Shown here in pieces: positions 35,306 to 63,423 of a stretch of DNA of 64,000 nucleotides. Origin of the DNA: an uncultured Anaerolineaceae bacterium (GTDB taxonomy: Bacteria; Chloroflexota; Anaerolineae; Anaerolineales; UBA4823). The DNA lies in contig CAYQDF010000006.1 of NCBI GenBank assembly GCA_964416175.1, forward strand, positions 526 through 64,525. The letters run 5' to 3'. Each line of letters begins with the position of its first letter. Position 1 is the first letter of the stretch. Both the position numbers and the translations under genes were made by a program. The notes beneath the pieces were generated by a model that was given only the letters and a program-made list of their open reading frames with translations, ran no database searches and was not told where the DNA came from.

Positions 35306-35311
35306 GATTTG

Positions 35312-35421
35312 TGTGGAGGCAGTGATCCACAGGCTTGGACTGGTCGCACGACCTCCAAGGGAGGGGAGCCTGCGGGGAGCCAATTGCGAAACCGGCCACA
35401 GGTCGGTTTCGTTTGCTTTTT
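35312..35421 (+). ncRNA. Candidate small RNA or cis-regulatory leader of about 110 nt, unclassified
   Basis: Bounded by the promoter above and an intrinsic terminator. Internal helix UGGAGG/CCUCCA (35314-35319 / 35352-35357). G-rich repeat GGGGAGCC x2. No ORF. Confidence 0.4.
35388..35421 (+). terminator. Intrinsic terminator
   Basis: GAAACCGGCC-ACA-GGTCGGTTTC hairpin (one G-U pair) followed by GTTTGCTTTTT. Confidence 0.75.
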
Positions 35422-35685: not shown

Positions 35686-37992
35686 ATGAAACGGCTCGTT
35701 TCTTTGTTCATATTGCTAGCCCTTGTAGCCGGACTGTTCGCGATGCCAGCCCTATCCGGTCCGGTTTCTGCGGGCAATATCTCTTCCAAGGATAGAACCG
35801 TAGACCTGATCGTCAAGACCGATGGGGCCAGCAGTTCGGTAATCAGCAAAGTCAATGCGCTGGGAGGTACAGTAAAATACGCCTATAAGAACGTCCCGGT
35901 CCTGGCGGTCAGAATTCCAGTGGATAACTACCTGGCGCTGCTGAACACCCCGGGGGTCTTGACAATCGTGAAGGACCGGCTGATCTCACTGAGCGCAGAG
36001 GTCGGGTTGAAGGAAAAGCCAGCCCCCGAATCGTATCTGGTGCAGGACGCGGCGGGCATCGCCGTGAAAGCCCTGGATCCGAAATCTCTGGACCTCGCCG
36101 CACTCCCGGAAGGTTACGCGAACTTTATTTACACTGGCGCTATCGACGTCTGGGAAGCGACAGACTTTGGCGCGGGCACCGTGGTGGCGGTAGTTGACAC
36201 GGGCACAGTCCCGAATGTCTGCCTTGCCCACGCAGTGATCGGCGCGCCGGGATTCCCGGATGGCTACAATGCCACCGGCGACGGCGTTCCCGCGACCGAT
36301 CCGCTGAATCACTGGCACGGCACACACGTGGGAGGTGTGATCGCTTCGGCCTGTGCGCTGGATTTCACGAGCGATCCCGGCGATCCGCTCTACCAGGCGA
36401 TCTCTGCCTACCTGCCGTGGTCGGTCGATTTCGTCCCGATCTTAGGCCAGGCGCCGCTCGCCCAGCTTTACCCGGTGAAGGTCTTTGACGTGACTGGCGG
36501 TTCGACGCCCACCTCGGTCATCCTCGATGGGCTCGACCACCTGCTGACTCTCAAGCGGGATGGTCTTTTGGATGTTGATGTGGTGAACATGAGCCTCGGC
36601 GGTTCATCGCTCTACGATGGCAAGGATATCTTCGACACATTCTTGCTCGAATTCCGCAAGGAGCACATCCTGGTCGTGACTTCCGCCAGCAACGATGGGC
36701 CGATCCCGAACAGCATCGGCTCCCCGGCCACCTCCTTCCGGACGCTCGCCGTTGGGGCTTTGGATTATGCACCGTCCTCCCGCGTTCTCTATGAATACCT
36801 GGGCCTCATCTCTGGCCTTGGATCAGGCCAGGGGATGGTGATGCGGCCGACGGATGAAGTGCGGGTGACGAATTTCTCCAGCCGAGGTCCCATGAGTGAC
36901 GGACGCATGGGCCCGGACATCTCCGCGCTGGGTTTGTGGAACTTCCACGCCGGCCCGCAAAATGAACTGCGCTGGGCGGGTGGGACCTCGTTCTCCTCCC
37001 CCACCGTGGCAGGCGGCGCTGCGCTGATCAACTCCTACTACGAGAACAAGCACGGCTCGGATACGCCGATCCATCGCTGGTATAAATCCCTCCTCAAATC
37101 GGCGGATCCCAGCGTGGTCGGCAGCAGCTGGCAGGGAGCGAACGACGTCGGATTCGGCGCCCTGGACATGGTCGCCGCGCTGAAGACCTTCCGCAATCCG
37201 CCAGTCCTCATGGATTACCCGGTCTACACCGGCGAACTCGCGCCGAGCATCCTCGGCGATCCTGTCAAGTTCCAGACGGACGTTTATGAGAGCTCCACGA
37301 TCACTCTGAACCCGAGCGAGACGCACACCGCGGTCTTCTCCATCGCCCCGTTCACCAGCAAGGTGACCATCGAGTTCTTCGATATCGTCGCGCCGGACAA
37401 CTCGGCGTACGCGTACTGGCCGAACGCCCTCGAGGTCCACGTCCAGAGCGCCAAGCGCACGGCTGTAGCCCACCCGGTTGGCCTCTACTGGTATCCCTTC
37501 GCTTACGGGGATGCCTTCTCCATTGAGATCGAAGACGGTCCGTGGACTGTGGCGGGCACTCCCTGGACATACCAGCCCATGGAACCTGGCTTGATGAAAG
37601 TCTCCCTGGTGGGCGACTTCTCGAACGAGTCCCCGGTCAGCTTCAAGATGCGCGTGACGCGGGAGAACGATGGCCTCAAGCGTGGCAGGCTGCTGGCCAG
37701 CTCCGACATCGGAATGGGCGATGCGTTCGTCATCCCGGTGGATGTCCCTGCCGGGCTCAGCTCGGTCACTTTCGACACGGTCTTCACCCGGAACTGGACG
37801 AAGTTCCCCACCAGCGACATCGATATGCTCATCTTCGATCCGGATCTGAACCTGGTCTCGATCGACGGCGCAACCCTGAACGCGCCGGAGCGGGCTGTCA
37901 TCGAGAATCCCGCAGCTGGAACCTGGTACATCTACATCGAAGGATTCGAGATGTACCGGAAGGATCACTTCAAACTCTGGATGAAGAAATAG
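35686..37992 (+). CDS. Secreted S8 (subtilisin-like) serine peptidase with C-terminal pre-peptidase-like domain
   Basis: 768 aa. Signal peptide. Catalytic triad motifs VAVVDTGT, HGTHVGG, GGTSFSSPTVAG. Confidence 0.9.
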   Translation: MKRLVSLFILLALVAGLFAMPALSGPVSAGNISSKDRTVDLIVKTDGASSSVISKVNALGGTVKYAYKNVPVLAVRIPVDNYLALLNTPGVLTIVKDRLISLSAEVGLKEKPAPESYLVQDAAGIAVKALDPKSLDLAALPEGYANFIYTGAIDVWEATDFGAGTVVAVVDTGTVPNVCLAHAVIGAPGFPDGYNATGDGVPATDPLNHWHGTHVGGVIASACALDFTSDPGDPLYQAISAYLPWSVDFVPILGQAPLAQLYPVKVFDVTGGSTPTSVILDGLDHLLTLKRDGLLDVDVVNMSLGGSSLYDGKDIFDTFLLEFRKEHILVVTSASNDGPIPNSIGSPATSFRTLAVGALDYAPSSRVLYEYLGLISGLGSGQGMVMRPTDEVRVTNFSSRGPMSDGRMGPDISALGLWNFHAGPQNELRWAGGTSFSSPTVAGGAALINSYYENKHGSDTPIHRWYKSLLKSADPSVVGSSWQGANDVGFGALDMVAALKTFRNPPVLMDYPVYTGELAPSILGDPVKFQTDVYESSTITLNPSETHTAVFSIAPFTSKVTIEFFDIVAPDNSAYAYWPNALEVHVQSAKRTAVAHPVGLYWYPFAYGDAFSIEIEDGPWTVAGTPWTYQPMEPGLMKVSLVGDFSNESPVSFKMRVTRENDGLKRGRLLASSDIGMGDAFVIPVDVPAGLSSVTFDTVFTRNWTKFPTSDIDMLIFDPDLNLVSIDGATLNAPERAVIENPAAGTWYIYIEGFEMYRKDHFKLWMKK

Positions 37993-41746: not shown

Positions 41747-41821
41747 AGGTCACATTTAATGTGATTTGGTATCTGCGCAAATCCTCCAATCTTCTTTACC
41801 GGAAAGCGTGGCTGTCTGGGA

Positions 41822-41851
41822 TTGCCAGATCAGGGATGTATATGATATAAA
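41822..41851 (+). promoter_or_regulatory. Candidate nrfHA promoter (TTGCCA-N18-TATAAA)
   Basis: Hexamers read by eye, about 60 nt upstream of the nrfH ATG. Confidence 0.3.
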
Positions 41852-41909
41852 TTTCGCAGCTGTGTGACATATACCCCAAACTCAACCCCACCTTTGGCGT
41901 GAGTACGAG

Positions 41910-42386
41910 ATGAGATTCGTCCTGTTCACTGGCATCGCTGCACTGCTGCTCGTCGTCGGCCTGGGAATGTATGTCACCGATTTCACGGCCTACCTGGGCA
42001 ATAACCCCACCACCTGCAACAACTGCCACGTGATGGACGCCGTTTACGAAGGCTGGTTCCACGGCGGTCACAAGCAGTGGGCTGTCTGCGCAGACTGCCA
42101 TACCCCTCACCCCCTGATCCCTAAATACTACGTAAAAGCGCTTTCCGGCTACCATCACGTCACCGCCTTTGTTTTCGGAAAGATCCCGGATGCGATCCGG
42201 GCCAAGGAGTCGTCGCGCCGGGTGGTCCAGGAGAACTGCATCCGCTGCCACGCGGAGACGATTGCGGAGACAAACGAAGGACTGATGGACTCGGACCGCT
42301 ATTGTTTCGAGTGCCACCGCAGCGTGGCGCACGGAGAGCGCGGTATCTCTCTGCTGCCATACCAACACAAGGAGGAAGGCCAATGA
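41910..42386 (+). CDS. nrfH: Tetraheme cytochrome c NrfH (NapC/NirT family)
   Basis: 158 aa. N-terminal TM helix. Four CxxCH motifs (CNNCH, CADCH, CIRCH, CFECH). Confidence 0.9.
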   Translation: MRFVLFTGIAALLLVVGLGMYVTDFTAYLGNNPTTCNNCHVMDAVYEGWFHGGHKQWAVCADCHTPHPLIPKYYVKALSGYHHVTAFVFGKIPDAIRAKESSRRVVQENCIRCHAETIAETNEGLMDSDRYCFECHRSVAHGERGISLLPYQHKEEGQ

Positions 42387-43687
42387 GAATCTCCAAGACG
42401 GGTGCTGTCCTGGCTGGCGTCATTGTCCTGTTAACCGCGGCTGTGATCGGCTTGCTTATATACATCAACAACCAGCCTCCGCCCATGCGCGGCATTGCGC
42501 CTCTCGTGGAGATCGCCGAGATGGAGCCCGATTCGTCCAGGTGGGGTGTCAATTTCCCCAACCAGTACTCCACACTTTTGCTGACAGAAATGAACAATGA
42601 GCGGACGGCTTACGGCGGCTCCAACCCCTTCTCCAGGCTGGAGAACAACCCGCGCCTGCTGACCTTGTTCGCTGGCTACAGTTTTTCGAAGGATTACAAC
42701 GAAGAGCGCGGCCACCTGAACAGCCTCACAGATGTTCGCGCCACGGGCAGGGTGAATGAGACCACTCCCGGCACCTGTTATTCGTGCAAGACGGCTGCGA
42801 ACCCGCAGCTGTGGAGCGAGATGGGCATGGCGGAATATGACAAGACCCCTTTCAGCGAGCTGGGAAAGCTTATCGAACACCCCATCGGCTGCGCCAATTG
42901 CCACGAAGCCAACACCATGCGCCTGATCGTGACCAACCCTGCACTGGAGGAGGCGCTGGAGGTGCAGGGCAGGGACTGGCGGACGTTCACCCGCCAAGAG
43001 ATGCGCACTGTGGTTTGCGCCAATTGCCATGTCGAATACTATTTCGCTGGAGAGGGGAAATACCTGACCTTCCCATGGGCAGGTGGGACGGACATCGAGT
43101 CGATCTCCGCTTACTACGCCGATCTGCAGTTCAAGGACTGGGACCACCCGCAATCAGGCGCGCCCATGATCAAGATGCAGCACCCCGAGTACGAGATCTT
43201 TACCGCCAACAGCACCCACTATAACGCTGGAGTGGCCTGCGCTGACTGCCATATGCCCTACACCCGCGACGGAGCAGCCAAGTTCTCGACCCACAATGTG
43301 AAAAGCCCGCTCCTGAACGCGGAAACCGCCTGCGGCGCCTGCCACACCGACGTGGCGTACGTCACCAGCCGGGTATCCATCATCCAGAACCAGGTGAGCG
43401 AGAGGATGGGCGCGGCCGAGGAAGCTATTGTGGCGGCGATCAAGGCGATCGAGGCGGCGGCAGCATCGCCGGGGGCAGACGCCACCCTGCTGGAGGAGGC
43501 CCGCCAGCTGCACCGGGAAGCCCAGCTGCGGTGGGACTTCATCTCTGCCGAGAACAGCATGGGTTTCCACAATCCGGAAGAAGCCCTGCGCATTCTTGCA
43601 TCAGCCACGGACCTGGCGCGCCAGGCGCAGCTCAAGGCGGTCCTGGCTGGGGGCGGCTTAGTAGGGGGCGAGACCAGCGGAAATTGA
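42383..43687 (+). CDS. nrfA: Pentaheme cytochrome c nitrite reductase NrfA (ammonia-forming)
   Basis: Start moved to ATG 42383 (ATGA overlap with nrfH). Active-site CxxCK (CYSCK) plus four CxxCH (CANCH x2, CADCH, CGACH). Confidence 0.9.
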   Translation: MRISKTGAVLAGVIVLLTAAVIGLLIYINNQPPPMRGIAPLVEIAEMEPDSSRWGVNFPNQYSTLLLTEMNNERTAYGGSNPFSRLENNPRLLTLFAGYSFSKDYNEERGHLNSLTDVRATGRVNETTPGTCYSCKTAANPQLWSEMGMAEYDKTPFSELGKLIEHPIGCANCHEANTMRLIVTNPALEEALEVQGRDWRTFTRQEMRTVVCANCHVEYYFAGEGKYLTFPWAGGTDIESISAYYADLQFKDWDHPQSGAPMIKMQHPEYEIFTANSTHYNAGVACADCHMPYTRDGAAKFSTHNVKSPLLNAETACGACHTDVAYVTSRVSIIQNQVSERMGAAEEAIVAAIKAIEAAAASPGADATLLEEARQLHREAQLRWDFISAENSMGFHNPEEALRILASATDLARQAQLKAVLAGGGLVGGETSGN

Positions 43688-55203: not shown

Positions 55204-56067
55204 TCAACTGGTCCACGCGCTGCTTGTTTGGGTGATCACGGCGGCCGCATACCCGACCACTTCTGAGTAGTCTCCGGTCACGTCTCCGGAGGTGGCATGG
55301 TGGAGTACCTGCACCCGGTCGGCGCCCAGCTCCCGGGCCGCCCACAATACTGCCGCCAGCGCAAACCGCCCACAGGCGAAGCCCCTGCCTTCGTCTTCCA
55401 CCCGGATCACGCCCTGCGGGTCGAATGCCTCCACCTGGCGCAGCAGCTCTGCGTCCAGGGCCTTCGCCTGGGTCTGCGGGTAGAAGTGGGAGAGGTCTGT
55501 GCTGGCGACCAGAAGGGAATTGCGACCGGAAAGCGTTTTCGCGAGAGCCTTGCCGAGCGTTCGGCTGACTTCCGCCGACTGGCTGCGAACCATGACCGGC
55601 AGCAGACGGAATGGGCCGGCCAGGGCGCGTTGGAGGAACGGCAGTTCGATCTCCAGGGAATGCTCCGGGTCGTTCCGCACGCGCGCGAGCCCAAACCCCA
55701 GGTCTTCGACCAGGAGGTCGTCCAATTCTTCCAGGGCGCCCTGCTCGATGTGGACCGGGCCGAGGGGGGTCTGGTACGCTGCGTGGGCTGAGGTCAGCAG
55801 CGGCGGCTGGTAAGGGTGGTGCATGGGAGAGACGACCGCCACCAGGTCCGGTTGTAAGCCCCGCAGCGGCGCGAAGGCGTAGCCGGCCACCGGACCGGAG
55901 TAAAGGTGGCCGGCGTGGGGCGCGACGACCCCCACGATGCGGCCTTCGATGGGGGGTAGCTGGGCTGCGGCCATGTAATCATCCACGCTGCCGGCCAGGC
56001 GGCGCGCGTCGCCCGGGTACCAGCGGCCGGCGATGGGTGAGGGACGGGCATCGAGGGTGGTGTTCAT
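55204..56067 (-). CDS. MEMO1-family protein (AmmeMemoRadiSam system protein B-like)
   Basis: ATG 56067 preferred (MNTTLDARPSPIAGRWYPG...); the track start at 56109 is also possible. VAPHAGHLYSGPVAGYAF motif. Confidence 0.8.
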   Translation of the reverse strand: MNTTLDARPSPIAGRWYPGDARRLAGSVDDYMAAAQLPPIEGRIVGVVAPHAGHLYSGPVAGYAFAPLRGLQPDLVAVVSPMHHPYQPPLLTSAHAAYQTPLGPVHIEQGALEELDDLLVEDLGFGLARVRNDPEHSLEIELPFLQRALAGPFRLLPVMVRSQSAEVSRTLGKALAKTLSGRNSLLVASTDLSHFYPQTQAKALDAELLRQVEAFDPQGVIRVEDEGRGFACGRFALAAVLWAARELGADRVQVLHHATSGDVTGDYSEVVGYAAAVITQTSSAWTS

Positions 56068-56129
56068 AATGCTGATTAATTCTAGCATAATCCAGACCCA
56101 ATGTCCCATTCCCCGAATCCAGCTGTGTT

Positions 56130-56165
56130 AGGAGTTACGCAGTTCAGGCAACCTCCTACCAACTG
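56130..56165 (+). repeat. Conserved non-coding element, copy B (core)
   Basis: AGGAGTTACGCAGTTCAGGCAACCTCCTACCAACTG, partner of 30785-30821. Located about 105 nt upstream of the SelW-like gene. Confidence 0.7.
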
Positions 56166-56271
56166 GATAAGTCCTATATGTTATACTAATTTCATCCTGA
56201 AAGCCTGCTCCCGCCCAGGGATGGGCCGCAACCCAACCTGCATCCAGATATGATATAAGGAGACGATGCCG

Positions 56272-56508
56272 ATGAAGAAAGTCGAGCTGGTGTATTGTGC
56301 CGTCTGACATTACACAGAGCGCGCTGCCAGTCTGGCGGCTGAGCTGTTGAAGGAGTTCGAGTTCCAGATCGAGAGTCTAACCCTGGTGCCTTCCGATGGA
56401 GGCCGGTTTGAAGTCATGGTCGATGACCAGCTCGTATATTCCAAGCTCCGGACCGGCCGCCACGCCGAACCCGGGGAGATAGCCGGGCTGATTCGCAAAC
56501 TGATTTAA
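56272..56508 (+). CDS. SelW/SelT/SelH (Rdx) family selenoprotein, CxxU motif; TGA 56305-56307 read as selenocysteine
   Basis: Not in the ORF track. AAGGAGA SD 8 nt before the ATG. Translation: MKKVELVYCAVUHYTERAASLAAELLKEFEFQIESLTLVPSDGGRFEVMVDDQLVYSKLRTGRHAEPGEIAGLIRKLI. Matches the Rdx pattern YCxx(C/U)...ELL...P..GG.FEV.VD..L[IV][YW]SK...G. A hairpin follows the TGA. Confidence 0.8.
56318..56345 (+). promoter_or_regulatory. SECIS-like stem-loop downstream of the SelW-like UGA
   Basis: GCUGCC-AGUCU-GGCGGC (56323-56339) with outer AGC/GCU pairs. The apical loop lies about 22 nt after the UGA and contains GU. Confidence 0.5.
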
Positions 56509-56574
56509 TCGAAATCCCCGATTTATTTGCGGGAATGCAGCTCCCAGGGTCTGGGGAAAGGATGAACGGGATCG

Positions 56575-57438
56575 ATGGAGATCTATCTTGCAGATGAACA
56601 GGCTTACCATTTCGTTCCGCGCTTCACCCTGGAAGTTGCGCGCGACCGGGTGGAACAGAAAAAAACCGGCCTGGTCGCCGGGACCCTGGGGTCGTTGTTC
56701 TCCCGCCCAGATCCTGGCGACATCCAATTGTCCAGCATCGAGAATCGTCTCGAGCCGTACTGGACCATCTCGGCTGCTGCGCGCACGGTATATGACCGCA
56801 CACGCGCCTTCACAGTCCCAGTCAGCGGACCGGATGTCCAGCGCGTCAAGATATTTGGACAGGAGGTCCTCGTCGACAAGAAGGTGAAAGAGGGGCCAGC
56901 TTTCTCCCTGGAGGGGGTCGAATCCTGCCTGGAAGAACGGCGCGCCGCGCGTTCCTTCGACGGCCTGACCGGTGAGAAATTCGACGCAGAGAAGTTCAAG
57001 GCATTTCCCAAGACAGTGATCGTCGACCTGGATAGCTTCAGCTCACCGGAGGCGGTAGTCATCCCGCCCCAGGTCAGGGCCGCGGCTGTGGTGCGGCAGG
57101 TCCTGGCTGAGGTGATCCGGCCCGTTCAGAGCGCCCAGGTGATCCACGAAGAGACGGTGCACGTCGAGGCCATCGAGCTGAACTTCCGCCCGGTCTATGC
57201 GTTCGAATACGAGTGGGCGGCAAAGGGTAAGCGGGTCGTGATTGAGTTTGACGCCCTGACCGGCGAGATGACCGCCGGCGGGAAGAAGCTCAGCGCTCAA
57301 ATCAAAGGCATGGTCAGCCGGGACCTGCTGTTCGACATCACGGCCGATGCCGCAGGCATGCTGGTTCCCGGGGGCGGAATCGCTGTCAAACTGGTGAAGG
57401 CCGTCGTGGACCGCCCGAAATCGAACCAGATGAAATAA
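56575..57438 (+). CDS. Hypothetical protein (no family recognised)
   Basis: 287-aa ORF with GC3-rich codon usage and a GGAAAGGA SD-like sequence upstream. Sits between the SelW-like gene and dtd on the same strand. Confidence 0.6.
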   Translation: MEIYLADEQAYHFVPRFTLEVARDRVEQKKTGLVAGTLGSLFSRPDPGDIQLSSIENRLEPYWTISAAARTVYDRTRAFTVPVSGPDVQRVKIFGQEVLVDKKVKEGPAFSLEGVESCLEERRAARSFDGLTGEKFDAEKFKAFPKTVIVDLDSFSSPEAVVIPPQVRAAAVVRQVLAEVIRPVQSAQVIHEETVHVEAIELNFRPVYAFEYEWAAKGKRVVIEFDALTGEMTAGGKKLSAQIKGMVSRDLLFDITADAAGMLVPGGGIAVKLVKAVVDRPKSNQMK

Positions 57439-57455: not shown

Positions 57456-57893
57456 ATGCGCATCGTACTGCAACGCGTATCCCGGGCAGCGGTCAGCGTC
57501 GGCGAGCGGCGGGTGGCGCAGATCGGTCCCGGTGTGGTGATCCTCGTGGGGGTCGGCCCCACTGACGGTGAAGAGCAGGTGCAATACCTGGCCGAGAAGA
57601 TCGCCAACCTGCGGATCTTCGAAGACGAAGATGGCAAGATCAACCGCTCCCTGCTGGAAGTGGGCGGGGAGGCGATCGTCGTATCGCAGTTCACGCTCTA
57701 CGCGGACACGCGCAAAGGGCGGAGGCCGTCTTTCACCGGGGCCGCCCTGGCAGAGGCTGCCGCTCCGCTGGTGGAGAAGCTCGCCGCGCGCCTCTCGGAG
57801 CTGGGGGTCCCGACTCAAACCGGCGAATTTGGGGCTCACATGCTGGTCGAGATCGCCAACGATGGCCCGGTGACGATCTGGTTAGAACGCTGA
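57456..57893 (+). CDS. dtd: D-aminoacyl-tRNA deacylase
   Basis: 145 aa. MRIVLQRV..., [18 protein letters not shown]-terminal NDGPVT. Confidence 0.9.
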
Positions 57894-60704: not shown

Positions 60705-61769
60705 ATGTCAGAAGTTTTTCCGTCCGGACGCCAGATCCGCCTGACGACGCTGTCGAGCTGCGCGGGTTGAGCGTCGAAGTTAAGCGCTGAAGCGCTGGCG
60801 CAGGTGCTGCGCCCCATAGAGGGCATGTTTCACGCCGCGGATTTCCCGGACCTGCTGGTGGGTCTGGGAGAGCCGGACGATGCGGCTGTCTGGCGGCTGA
60901 CCGACGACCGCGCCCTGGTGGTGACGACCGACTTCTTCACCCCCGTGGTGGACAACCCGTATGATTACGGGGCGATCGCCGCCGCCAACAGCCTCTCGGA
61001 CATCTACGCCATGGGCGGGAAGCCTTTCCTGGCGCTCAACGTGGCTGCCCTGCCGCCCGATCTGCCGGCAGAGATCAGCGGCGAGATCCTGCGCGGCGGC
61101 GCCGAGAAAGCGCGGGAGGCTGGAGTTGTGATCGCCGGCGGGCACACCGTCCAGGACAAGGAGCCCAAGTACGGCCTGATCGCCCTGGGGTTCGTCGACC
61201 CCGCTCGCATGATCACCAAGCGCGGCGCAGCACCAGGCGACGTGCTCGTGCTGAGCAAGCCCCTGGGCTTCGGCACCATCACCACCGCCCTCAAGCGCGA
61301 GCAGGCCGACCCCACCGACGTATCAGAGGCGGTCGGCTGGATGAAGCGCTTGAATAATGCGGCTTCTGAGCTGGCGGTGGATTGCGGAGTGCGCGGGGGG
61401 ACGGACGTGACCGGCTTCAGCCTGCTGGGGCACGGATGGGAAATGGCCCAGTCCTCCGGAGTGGGACTGCGGTTCTCCTTTGGGAAAATCCCCTTCGTTC
61501 GCGGGGCGCGCCGCTATGCCCAGGAATGGATCTTCCCCGGCGGGACCTCCGACAACCGGCTGTATTTCAGCCCGCACGTGCGCTTCTCGGAAGAGATCGA
61601 CGAGCCCGCCCAGATGCTGCTCTTCGATGCCCAGACCAGCGGAGGTCTGCTGCTGGCGGTGCCCCCTGGGGAAGTCGAGCGCCTGTTCTCCCGCGCCGCC
61701 GAGGCCGGGCAGGTGCTATGGCAGGTGGGCGAGGTGGTGGAGGGGGATGATATCGAGGTGACAGCTTAG
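60705..61769 (+). CDS. selD: Selenide, water dikinase (selenophosphate synthetase), Sec-containing form; TGA 60768-60770 read as selenocysteine
   Basis: Track ORF 60804-61769 is a SelD lacking its catalytic N-terminus. Extending in frame through the TGA to ATG 60705 gives MSEVFPSGRQIRLTTLSSCAGUASKLSAEALAQVL, which is the G(C/U)xxK active-site loop. ATG lies 4 nt after the upstream stop. Confidence 0.85.
60797..60813 (+). promoter_or_regulatory. SECIS-like hairpin downstream of the selD UGA
   Basis: GGCGCA-GGUGC-UGCGCC, with a GGU-containing apical loop about 33 nt after the UGA. A smaller AGCGC-UGAA-GCGCU hairpin at 60783-60796 is an alternative. Confidence 0.45.
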
Positions 61770-61794: not shown

Positions 61795-63423
61795 ATGACG
61801 CTTGAATTCACTTCTCGCCGCTCACCCGTCCTTGGCGCCCGCGGCATGGTGGCGACGTCGCAGCCCTTGGCAGTGGCTGCCGGGCTGGAGGTTCTGGCCC
61901 TGGGCGGCAACGCCGCCGACGCCGCCGCGGCGGCTGCCGCGGCCCTCAATGTCACCGAGCCGACCTCGACCGGAATCGGGGGCGACTGCTTCGCCCTGTA
62001 TTACGACTCAGCCAGCCGCCAGGTAAGCGCCCTGAACGGTTCCGGGCGCGCCCCGGCCGCCCTGACCCTGGAGCGCCTGGAGCGGGAAGGCTACCGGCAG
62101 GCGCTGCCGCCTCTTCACCCATACACGATCACCGTGCCGGGGGCCTGCGCCGGGTGGTGCGACCTGGTGGAGAGGCACGGCCGGTTCTCGATCGCAAGGG
62201 TGCTTGCGCCGGCGATCCGGCTGGCCGAGGAGGGCTTCCCGGTGGCGCCGGTCACCGCGTATTTCTGGGCGCGCGGCGCAGAACGCCAGCTGCGCCAGGC
62301 CCGGGGCGGCTCGGAGCTCACCATCGACGGGCGCGCCCCGCGCGCCGGAGAAGTCTTCCGCAACCCGGGGCTGGCCAGGACTCTGAGGGCCGTGGCCGAA
62401 GGGGGAAAAGAGGCCTTCTACCGGGGAGCGATCGCCGCCGCCATCGCGGCCATCGTCCAGGAGGCCGGCGGCTGCCTGGCTGAATCCGACCTGGCGGCCC
62501 ACCACAGCACCTGGGACGAGCCGATCAGCACCACGTACCGCGGCCTGCGGATCTGGGAATGCCCGCCGAACGGGCAGGGGTTGGCCGCGCTGTTGGCGCT
62601 GAACATCCTGGAAGGCTTCGATCTGGCGGGCACGCCGCCGCTCTCGGCGGAGCGCCTGCACCTCGAGATCGAGTCCCTGCGCCTGGCGTTCGCAGACGCC
62701 CGCTGGTACGTCGCCGACCCCGCGGCGCAGCCGGCGCCTCTGGAAGACCTCCTTTCGAAAGACTACGCCGCCGTGCGCCGCAAATTGATCGACCCTGCCC
62801 GGGCGTCCCTGGATCAGGCGCGGGGAACGCCCGCCGCCGCTTCGGACACGGTGTACCTGAGCGTTGTCGACGAGGAGGGCAACGCCTGCTCTTTCATTAA
62901 CAGCAACTACATGGGGTTCGGGACGGGCATCGTTCCTCCTGGCTGGGGGTTCACGCTGCAGAACCGCGGCCACAACTTCAGCCTCGAACCGGGCCACCCC
63001 AACGCCCTGGCGCCCGGCAAGCGCCCGTATCACACCATCATCCCGGCCCTGGCGACGCGGTCCGGTGCGTCGGGCGAGGCGCTCTACGCCTGTTTTGGCG
63101 TGATGGGGGGATTCATGCAGCCCCAGGGGCACCTGCAGATAGTGGCGGCCCTGGTCGACGACGGGCTGGACCCACAGGCCGCCCTCGACCGGCCGCGGTT
63201 CTGCATTACGGATGGGGAAGCTGGCGGGGGGGTCGCTTTAGAGGCAGGCATCCCCATCGAGACGGTGGAGCAGCTGGAGCGGATGGGTCACCCGGTGGAG
63301 GGGATCGAAGGCCATGCCCGGGCGCTGTTCGGGCGCGGGCAGGTCATCCTGCGCGACGCCGCGAGCGGCATCCTGTGGGGCGGCAGCGACCCGCGCGCGG
63401 ATGGGTGCGCCATGTGCCTGTAA
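61795..63423 (+). CDS. ggt: Gamma-glutamyltransferase
   Basis: 542 aa. Autoprocessing and nucleophile Thr region (ASDTVYLSVVDEEGNA) and GGSDPRADG near the C-terminus. Confidence 0.9.
   Translation: MTLEFTSRRSPVLGARGMVATSQPLAVAAGLEVLALGGNAADAAAAAAAALNVTEPTSTGIGGDCFALYYDSASRQVSALNGSGRAPAALTLERLEREGYRQALPPLHPYTITVPGACAGWCDLVERHGRFSIARVLAPAIRLAEEGFPVAPVTAYFWARGAERQLRQARGGSELTIDGRAPRAGEVFRNPGLARTLRAVAEGGKEAFYRGAIAAAIAAIVQEAGGCLAESDLAAHHSTWDEPISTTYRGLRIWECPPNGQGLAALLALNILEGFDLAGTPPLSAERLHLEIESLRLAFADARWYVADPAAQPAPLEDLLSKDYAAVRRKLIDPARASLDQARGTPAAASDTVYLSVVDEEGNACSFINSNYMGFGTGIVPPGWGFTLQNRGHNFSLEPGHPNALAPGKRPYHTIIPALATRSGASGEALYACFGVMGGFMQPQGHLQIVAALVDDGLDPQAALDRPRFCITDGEAGGGVALEAGIPIETVEQLERMGHPVEGIEGHARALFGRGQVILRDAASGILWGGSDPRADGCAMCL

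Follow-up and report, generated by a model that had tools for sequence, protein, structure and literature searches.

The 64-kb stretch of DNA that we analysed (hereafter, the window) carries on its forward strand a short gene of the Rdx/SelW-like family, whose coding sequence contains an in-frame UGA codon and, just after it, a small hairpin (Table 1). Read directly and translated, the sense frame runs from the ATG at 56272 through the TGA at 56305-56307 to the TAA at 56506-56508, and its product is MKKVELVYCAV, then the TGA, then HYTERAASLAAELLKEFEFQIESLTLVPSDGGRFEVMVDDQLVYSKLRTGRHAEPGEIAGLIRKLI, with the part after the interruption beginning HYTERAAS when TGA is taken as U. The Shine-Dalgarno-like sequence, the start, the TGA, the stop and the length of 78 codons are all as an earlier sequence-only reading of this DNA had described them. 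An alternative in-frame ATG is present at 56266; it lies 2 nt from the Shine-Dalgarno-like sequence, which is a poorer spacing than that of the ATG at 56272. The same reading had held that no open reading frame (ORF) covers the gene in the sense direction and that only two short antisense ORFs flank the TGA. The antisense ORFs do exist (56128-56310 and 56310-56498); however, a sense ORF from a TTG at 56347 to 56508 spans the 3′ two-thirds of the gene, and this claim stood only in part.

Table 1. Features of the UGA-containing Rdx gene and of selD in the window.
Feature	Position	Strand	Basis
Shine-Dalgarno-like sequence, AAGGAGA	56257..56263	+	Direct read; 8 nt 5′ of ATG 56272
Rdx/SelW-like selenoprotein CDS, 78 codons, predicted Sec at codon 12 in C9-A-V-U12	56272..56508	+	Translation, PF10262, TIGR02174, PDB alignments, codon-position pattern
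Cys9 codon TGT, first redox residue of CxxU	56296..56298	+	Direct read; Cys in every orthologue translation
In-frame UGA, codon 12, predicted selenocysteine U12	56305..56307	+	TGA conserved in orthologues; Cys in distant homologues
Possible extended lower SECIS stem	56314..56347	+	Single-sequence MFE only: 56314-17/56344-47, 56320-21/56340-41
Core SECIS-like hairpin, GCUGCCA-GUC-UGGCGGC, 7-bp stem	56323..56339	+	Fold; covariation across orthologues
53-aa fragment with TTG start, called by public annotation	56347..56508	+	ORF list; P0010 100% identical; JGI calls
selD (selenophosphate synthetase), in-frame UGA 60768-60770, motif SSCAG-U-ASKLS	60705..61769	+	TIGR00476, 354 bits with U replaced by C

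Genomic neighbourhood

The genes upstream of the Rdx gene are divergent and encode a Memo-like protein (55204-56109), a CNNM/CorC transporter and PriA, an arrangement that is conserved in four related loci. Downstream lie an ORF of 287 aa (56575-57438, forward strand) and then the gene for Dtd (57456-57893). The 287-aa ORF, which is also present on four JGI contigs, matched nothing in Pfam or NCBIfam, and tblastn did not find it in the related loci. Dtd is encoded 3′ of the Rdx gene in 15 of the 16 loci L001-L016, with a tryptophanyl-tRNA synthetase (TrpRS) gene between the two in most of them, and the order Rdx-TrpRS-Dtd is found in most of the Anaerolineae relatives (L001-L016 and L030); in the window, the TrpRS slot is filled by the unrelated 287-aa ORF. 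A scan of 56050-56650 returned no promoter-like site in the stretch from the divergent Memo gene, whose near boundary is 56109, to the ATG at 56272, and no terminator-like site; the two promoter-like sites that it did return (56063-56107) are inside the Memo gene.

The sequence-only reading had also pointed to a Sec-containing selD about 4 kb away, and this proved correct: selD lies 4.4 kb from the Rdx gene and has its own in-frame TGA. Two hairpins are present 3′ of this codon, the second of which (60797-60813) has a 7-bp stem and a GUG triloop, much like the 7-bp stem and GUC loop in the Rdx gene. The annotations of selD begin after the UGA, giving a product of 321 aa from the ORF caller and of 314 aa from JGI. 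A Sec-containing SelD presupposes a working Sec machinery. Neither ARAGORN nor Rfam identified a tRNA-Sec, either in the window or in 31 fetched loci, and Pfam scans found no SelA or SelB among 29 of the 49 large ORFs of the window; this search covered the 64-kb window and the fetched flanks, where absence is uninformative for the whole genome. In a crude scan of the window for other UGA-interrupted genes, with the other candidates judged by eye, only the Rdx gene and selD had coding-like pieces upstream of the UGA.

Several other features were recorded elsewhere in the window. At 35306-35404 on the forward strand there is a c-di-GMP-II-GAG riboswitch aptamer (RF03169), which scored 44.6 bits where the gathering score is 40; a gene for a subtilase (Peptidase_S8; 35686-37992) follows about 280 nt downstream. 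Ahead of the gene for a cytochrome c552 (NrfA-type nitrite reductase; 42302-43687, forward strand) lies a small CxxCH-rich ORF of the multi-haem type that resembles NrfH (41766-42386, forward strand), and the haem pathway genes hemA, hemB, hemE and hemL are clustered at 16.6-25.6 kb. Finally, ARAGORN called an 85-nt tRNA-Gly(GCC) at 62968-63052 on the reverse strand, inside and antisense to a gamma-glutamyltranspeptidase ORF (61795-63423). As Rfam gave no tRNA match at this site at the gathering threshold, the call is probably a false positive.

Protein family and fold

The product of the Rdx gene had been said to carry the signature of the Rdx fold, and profile searches, run with U12 written as C, bore this out at full length. 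The match to Pfam Rdx (PF10262; E=2e-20) scored 73.1 bits against a cutoff of 22.6, with residues 3-76 aligned to positions 1-74 of the 74 in the profile, and that to NCBIfam TIGR02174 ("CXXU_selWTH") scored 63.2 bits against a cutoff of 34.2; both scores are well over the curated cutoffs. The equivalog NF041051 (SelTWH_Campy) gave 78 bits, which is below its cutoff of 88, and on this score the window protein is a relative of the Campylobacter-type equivalog rather than a member of it. Furthermore, the bacterial SelW-related structures 3DEX, 2FA8, 2P0G, 2OBK, 2OKA and 2OJL align over the full length of the protein with their CxxC motif over CxxU. The UGA falls opposite the second Cys of CxxC in these solved Rdx proteins, at the second redox position where it had been proposed to lie.

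An AlphaFold model was made of P0020, the closest true-Cys relative, which is 53% identical to the window protein. The model (pLDDT 94.6) has the topology beta1-[CTAC]-alpha1-beta2-beta3-beta4-alpha2, with the CTAC motif between a strand at residues 3-10 and a helix at residues 16-33. Its top PDB matches are all SelW-related, with TM scores of 0.82-0.88 and an rmsd of about 1.3 Å; after the bacterial SelW-related structures come mouse SelW and MIEN1, and then thioredoxins. Judged from this homologue, the window product is predicted to have a thioredoxin-like Rdx fold.

Conservation of the UGA codon

The orthologue scan used one genome per species and gave 25 loci with relatives. Most of these belong to Anaerolineales, Anaerolineae or "Chloroflexia" MAGs, and the rest come from Caldilineaceae, one Lentisphaeria, one Actinomycetota, three Gamma-/Proteobacteria and one unclassified bacterium. 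TGA was found at exactly the homologous codon in all 25 species-level genomes, with the flanking Y-C-x-x and [HN]-Y conserved, and the motif YC..U-[HN]Y is kept across phyla. It also occupies the homologous codon in two cultured organisms, Cytobacillus spongiae and Thermomicrobium roseum, which were reached by tblastn of plasmid records. More distant homologues have a Cys codon, TGC or TGT, at this position. The alignment of orthologues at the UGA codon, which had been put forward as a check on the gene, therefore came out in its favour. Both the match to the protein family and the conservation of TGA are clearly beyond what chance would give.

The pattern of substitution was compared on the two sides of the UGA among the window and 19 Chloroflexota loci. 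At codon positions 1, 2 and 3, sequences differed in pairwise comparison by a mean of 0.32, 0.22 and 0.60 for the eight codons 5′ of the UGA, and 0.30, 0.17 and 0.57 for the 62 codons 3′ of it; position 3 varies about three times as much as position 2 on both sides. This pattern is of the coding type both before and after the UGA: the gene is one continuous frame under purifying selection, and does not consist of a leader with a short gene behind it. Of the 49 large ORFs in the window, 20 terminate in TGA, which is therefore a normal stop codon here, not one that has been globally reassigned.

Public annotation of the gene and its relatives

Public databases hold few intact members of this group. 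Among the best 120 protein-database matches, 103 are products of 53-66 aa that cover only the part after the UGA, 16 are full-length proteins whose residue at the Sec site is W, and a single one (P0020) has a genuine Cys there; from these alignments, 119 of the 120 look like Sec forms. One of the short products (P0010, 53 aa) is 100% identical to the window over 53 aa. The full-length W-bearing homologues are found among proteins P0001-P0017. For two of them, P0001 and P0006, the DNA was checked (L042, 409-651, and L043, 501-743): the codon at the Sec site is TGA, and the gene under table 11 does not give the recorded product. As TGA is present in the DNA of both W proteins checked, we regard the W as an artefact of alternative-code calling on contigs of roughly 1 kb.

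JGI holds four contigs of the same or a near-identical organism with identical synteny, on which the Rdx gene is called as the 53-aa fragment; on the one that carries the whole of selD, that gene is called as the 314-aa fragment. In the plasmid or megaplasmid records of the cultured organisms, nothing is annotated at the site in C. spongiae (L032; NZ_CP089998.1, 370644-370871; motif CMR-TGA), and in T. roseum (L033; NC_011961.1, 408170-408409; motif CTS-TGA) the RefSeq gene starts only after the UGA. The T. roseum gene is located just upstream of thiI.

A conserved hairpin downstream of the UGA

The sequence-only reading had noted a GC hairpin with a GU-containing loop downstream of the UGA. 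This hairpin is present, with a 7-bp stem and the loop GUC, and its assignment as a SECIS type is backed by covariation among the orthologues. The loop G (56330) and U (56331) are at +26 and +27 from the U of the UGA, and the hairpin sits in a local fold of -17.3 kcal/mol. Rfam at the gathering threshold gave no match to any family, SECIS included, in the Rdx gene region. As a single sequence, the hairpin was not significant against dinucleotide shuffles (z-score -1.4). When the gene was synonymously recoded with the codon usage of the window, 6.9% of recodings had all seven of the seven stem pairs and 9.7% had an MFE at least as low, and the peptide A-A-S-L-A-A alone forces at least four of the seven pairs. 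Taken by itself, the hairpin in the window sequence is weak evidence, and it becomes significant only across orthologues. The extended lower stem was not recovered in the orthologue consensus fold and is weakly supported.

The orthologues were compared in an ungapped alignment of 48 nt and 26 sequences. In the helix columns (19-25/29-35), 84.6% of cells were paired, against 18-50% when the partner was slid by 1-3 columns; four of the pairs show compensatory double changes, and RNAalifold independently selected the four inner pairs. The covariation score, which comes from sequences that are related and yet heavily diverged at synonymous sites, was 0.464 against at most 0.195 for the slid controls, a value reached by none of 500 shuffles. 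Recoding the orthologues synonymously gave 114 ± 4 in-register pairs against the 148 of 175 observed, and none of 5000 recodings reached the observed number. At the two pairs that involve third codon positions only (columns 21-33 and 24-30), 46 of 50 were paired against 21 ± 3 expected. The loop G26 is invariant though the codon there encodes Ser, Gly or Arg, with the Ser codons being AGY, and the loop U27 is retained in 21 of 25 sequences. This comparative evidence argues strongly for a conserved structured RNA hairpin 3′ of the UGA. Bacterial SECIS elements have been described as a small apical hairpin with a conserved G (PMC1088965; PMC4607533), features that the window hairpin matches, and the minimal element is an apical hairpin of 5-6 bp just after the UGA (PMC4607533; PMC1088965).

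Relatives with cysteine at the UGA position

The only close Cys-form relative is P0020 (L030, 2001-2252; codon TGC), in which the hairpin is perfect (seven of seven pairs) in the SECIS register and has a GUC loop. It was considered as a negative control; with n=1 and the hairpin intact, it does not discriminate. This relative appears to have changed from Sec to Cys recently and to have kept its SECIS as a fossil. The eight Cys forms from plasmid records (L034-L041), which are Rdx genes of Proteobacteria, Actinomycetota and a haloarchaeon, keep between one and four of the seven in-register pairs. Several of them encode L-R-A-x-W-M-A-Q as CUGCGC...GCGCAG and fold a shifted hairpin near the SECIS position, and as a control these distant forms are only partly clean for that reason. 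This shifted hairpin may descend from an ancestral SECIS, or it may simply be a coincidental outcome of the use of GC-rich codons. Since Cys forms also fold hairpins, the hairpin here is not by itself diagnostic of Sec.

Discussion

We conclude with high confidence that 56272-56508 on the forward strand encodes a 78-residue Rdx-fold (SelW/SelT/SelH-like) protein of the thiol/selenol oxidoreductase type, in which the second redox residue of C9-x-x-U12 is most probably Sec; the interpretation given in the sequence-only reading is thus supported. In the mechanism that we propose, a ribosome would reach the UGA at 56305, and the hairpin at 56323-56339, with its G/U apical loop, would recruit SelB-GTP-Sec-tRNA(Sec), leading to insertion of Sec instead of termination. 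Selenophosphate for the synthesis of Sec would be supplied by SelD, itself a predicted selenoprotein, whose gene lies 4.4 kb away. The product, folded as beta1-[CxxU]-alpha1-beta2-beta3-beta4-alpha2, would then cycle between a selenenylsulfide and the reduced thiol/selenol. In the literature, the CxxU motif is taken to suggest a redox function, and SelW interacts with glutathione (PMC1088965). What the data show directly is the gene with its family and fold, the conservation of the UGA and that of the structured RNA; insertion of Sec at this UGA, its dependence on SelB and the redox activity of the product are inferred.

Public annotation implies a different product, namely a 53-aa protein that starts at the TTG at 56347, which would make the upstream 75 nt an untranslated leader and the TGA irrelevant. 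The JGI calls on all four contigs and many database entries do start after the UGA, and RefSeq annotates T. roseum likewise. However, the starts of the truncated calls vary, with products ranging from 53 to 66 aa, which is typical of an artefact, and the fragment would be without beta1, the whole of CxxU and half of alpha1, all of which are needed by the fold. The coding-type substitution pattern of the eight codons 5′ of the TGA, together with the conservation of YC..U-[HN]Y across phyla, is also at odds with an untranslated leader, and we consider a 53-aa product highly improbable.

A full-length product in which the UGA at 56305 is read as something other than Sec is, in our judgement, just as improbable. 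Such decoding could involve a reassignment of the code 4/25 type, to Trp or Gly, or near-cognate or Cys read-through; some pipelines do place W at this site in orthologues, and the searches of the 64-kb window turned up none of selA, selB and tRNA-Sec. Against this, TGA serves as the stop codon for 20 of the window's 49 large ORFs, and the codon at 56305 is aligned to the catalytic Cys in CxxC, a position where Trp would be non-functional; in addition, a constrained hairpin follows the UGA, and selD in the same window has a classic Sec site. Finally, a short ORF broken by a stop codon might be thought a pseudogene, or a chance ORF in which the TGA is a sequencing error, but this is effectively refuted by the identical TGA in 25 independent genomes, on four contigs of different samples with the P0010 call and in cultured organisms, and by purifying selection on both sides of the TGA.

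The Rdx selenoprotein proposed here may also be considered with its Anaerolineae relatives, a clade with near-fixed Sec, a RHAEPGE motif and linkage to trpS and dtd. That the selenoprotein of this clade has a functional link to translation quality control or to aminoacyl-tRNA metabolism, instead of being a generic redox protein, is a long shot, drawn from synteny only, and it is weakened because trpS in the window has been replaced by the unrelated 287-aa ORF.

Both the protein family and the way in which annotation misses it have been on record for some 20 years. The Rdx family, its CxxU selenoprotein forms and their tendency to escape annotation are documented (PMC1088965; PMC1794560; PMC4607533), and among the selenoprotein families of the Sargasso Sea data the bacterial SelW-like proteins ranked first in abundance, with 48 Sec and seven Cys forms (PMC1088965). 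A Sec-containing ancestral state has been proposed for these proteins, Cys homologues being few in organisms that use Sec (PMC1794560), and selenoproteins of Chloroflexi have already been recorded (PMC1794560; PMC13326102). The call of a gene at this locus is therefore correct, and the gene is of a kind already described; the gain is in effect a corrected annotation and not a new system. The locus adds one Sec-form member to the Rdx family and opens no new question. The correction itself is to annotate 56272-56508 as a 78-aa selenoprotein with a transl_except at 56305-56307, and selD should likewise be extended to 60705. More widely, the Anaerolineae clade is represented in public databases almost entirely by artefacts, either fragments of 53-66 aa or proteins into which code-4/25 calling on short contigs has put Trp at the site of Sec, and these entries distort both family profiles and counts of the Chloroflexota selenoproteome.

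Comparison with known systems

The solved Cys-form Rdx proteins, namely Atu0228 (2FA8), SAV_2001 (3DEX) and those of Vibrio cholerae (2P0G) and Pseudomonas (2OBK and 2OKA), have their fold in common with the P0020 model, and their redox motifs are aligned with that of the window protein. They differ in having CxxC rather than CxxU, and the deposited chains are about 20 residues longer (103-108 aa), with an identity of 28-36%. Mouse SelW (2NPB) and MIEN1 also have the common Rdx fold, with CxxU (SelW) or CxxC, but are more distant, with TM scores of 0.61-0.65 to the P0020 model and ranks of 22-23 among the structure matches. The eukaryotic SECIS sits in the 3′UTR and is a kink-turn type structure rather than a hairpin within the coding region.

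For the RNA, a known parallel is the minimal SECIS of E. coli fdhF, which likewise has a short G+C-rich stem directly 3′ of the UGA with a G and a U in a small apical loop. The fdhF loop G and U, at +23 and +24, contact SelB. The loop context CAGUCUG in the window resembles that of fdhF, which we take to be GCAGGUCUGC. The G and U of the window, at +26 and +27, are one codon further from the UGA than in fdhF, and no bulged U is evident in the window hairpin, to which SelB binding is predicted.

The closest counterparts are the bacterial SelW-like Rdx selenoproteins. In the other bacterial members compared here, the C-terminus reads GRFPEPGEI or GGFP, whereas that of the Anaerolineae clade reads SKLxTxRHAEPGEI. 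The full-length domain is common to all of them, with CxxU after beta1 and a size of about 80 aa. Their SECIS hairpin likewise lies inside the coding region, just 3′ of the UGA, and they too have been missed or truncated by gene callers (PMC1088965; PMC1794560; PMC4607533).
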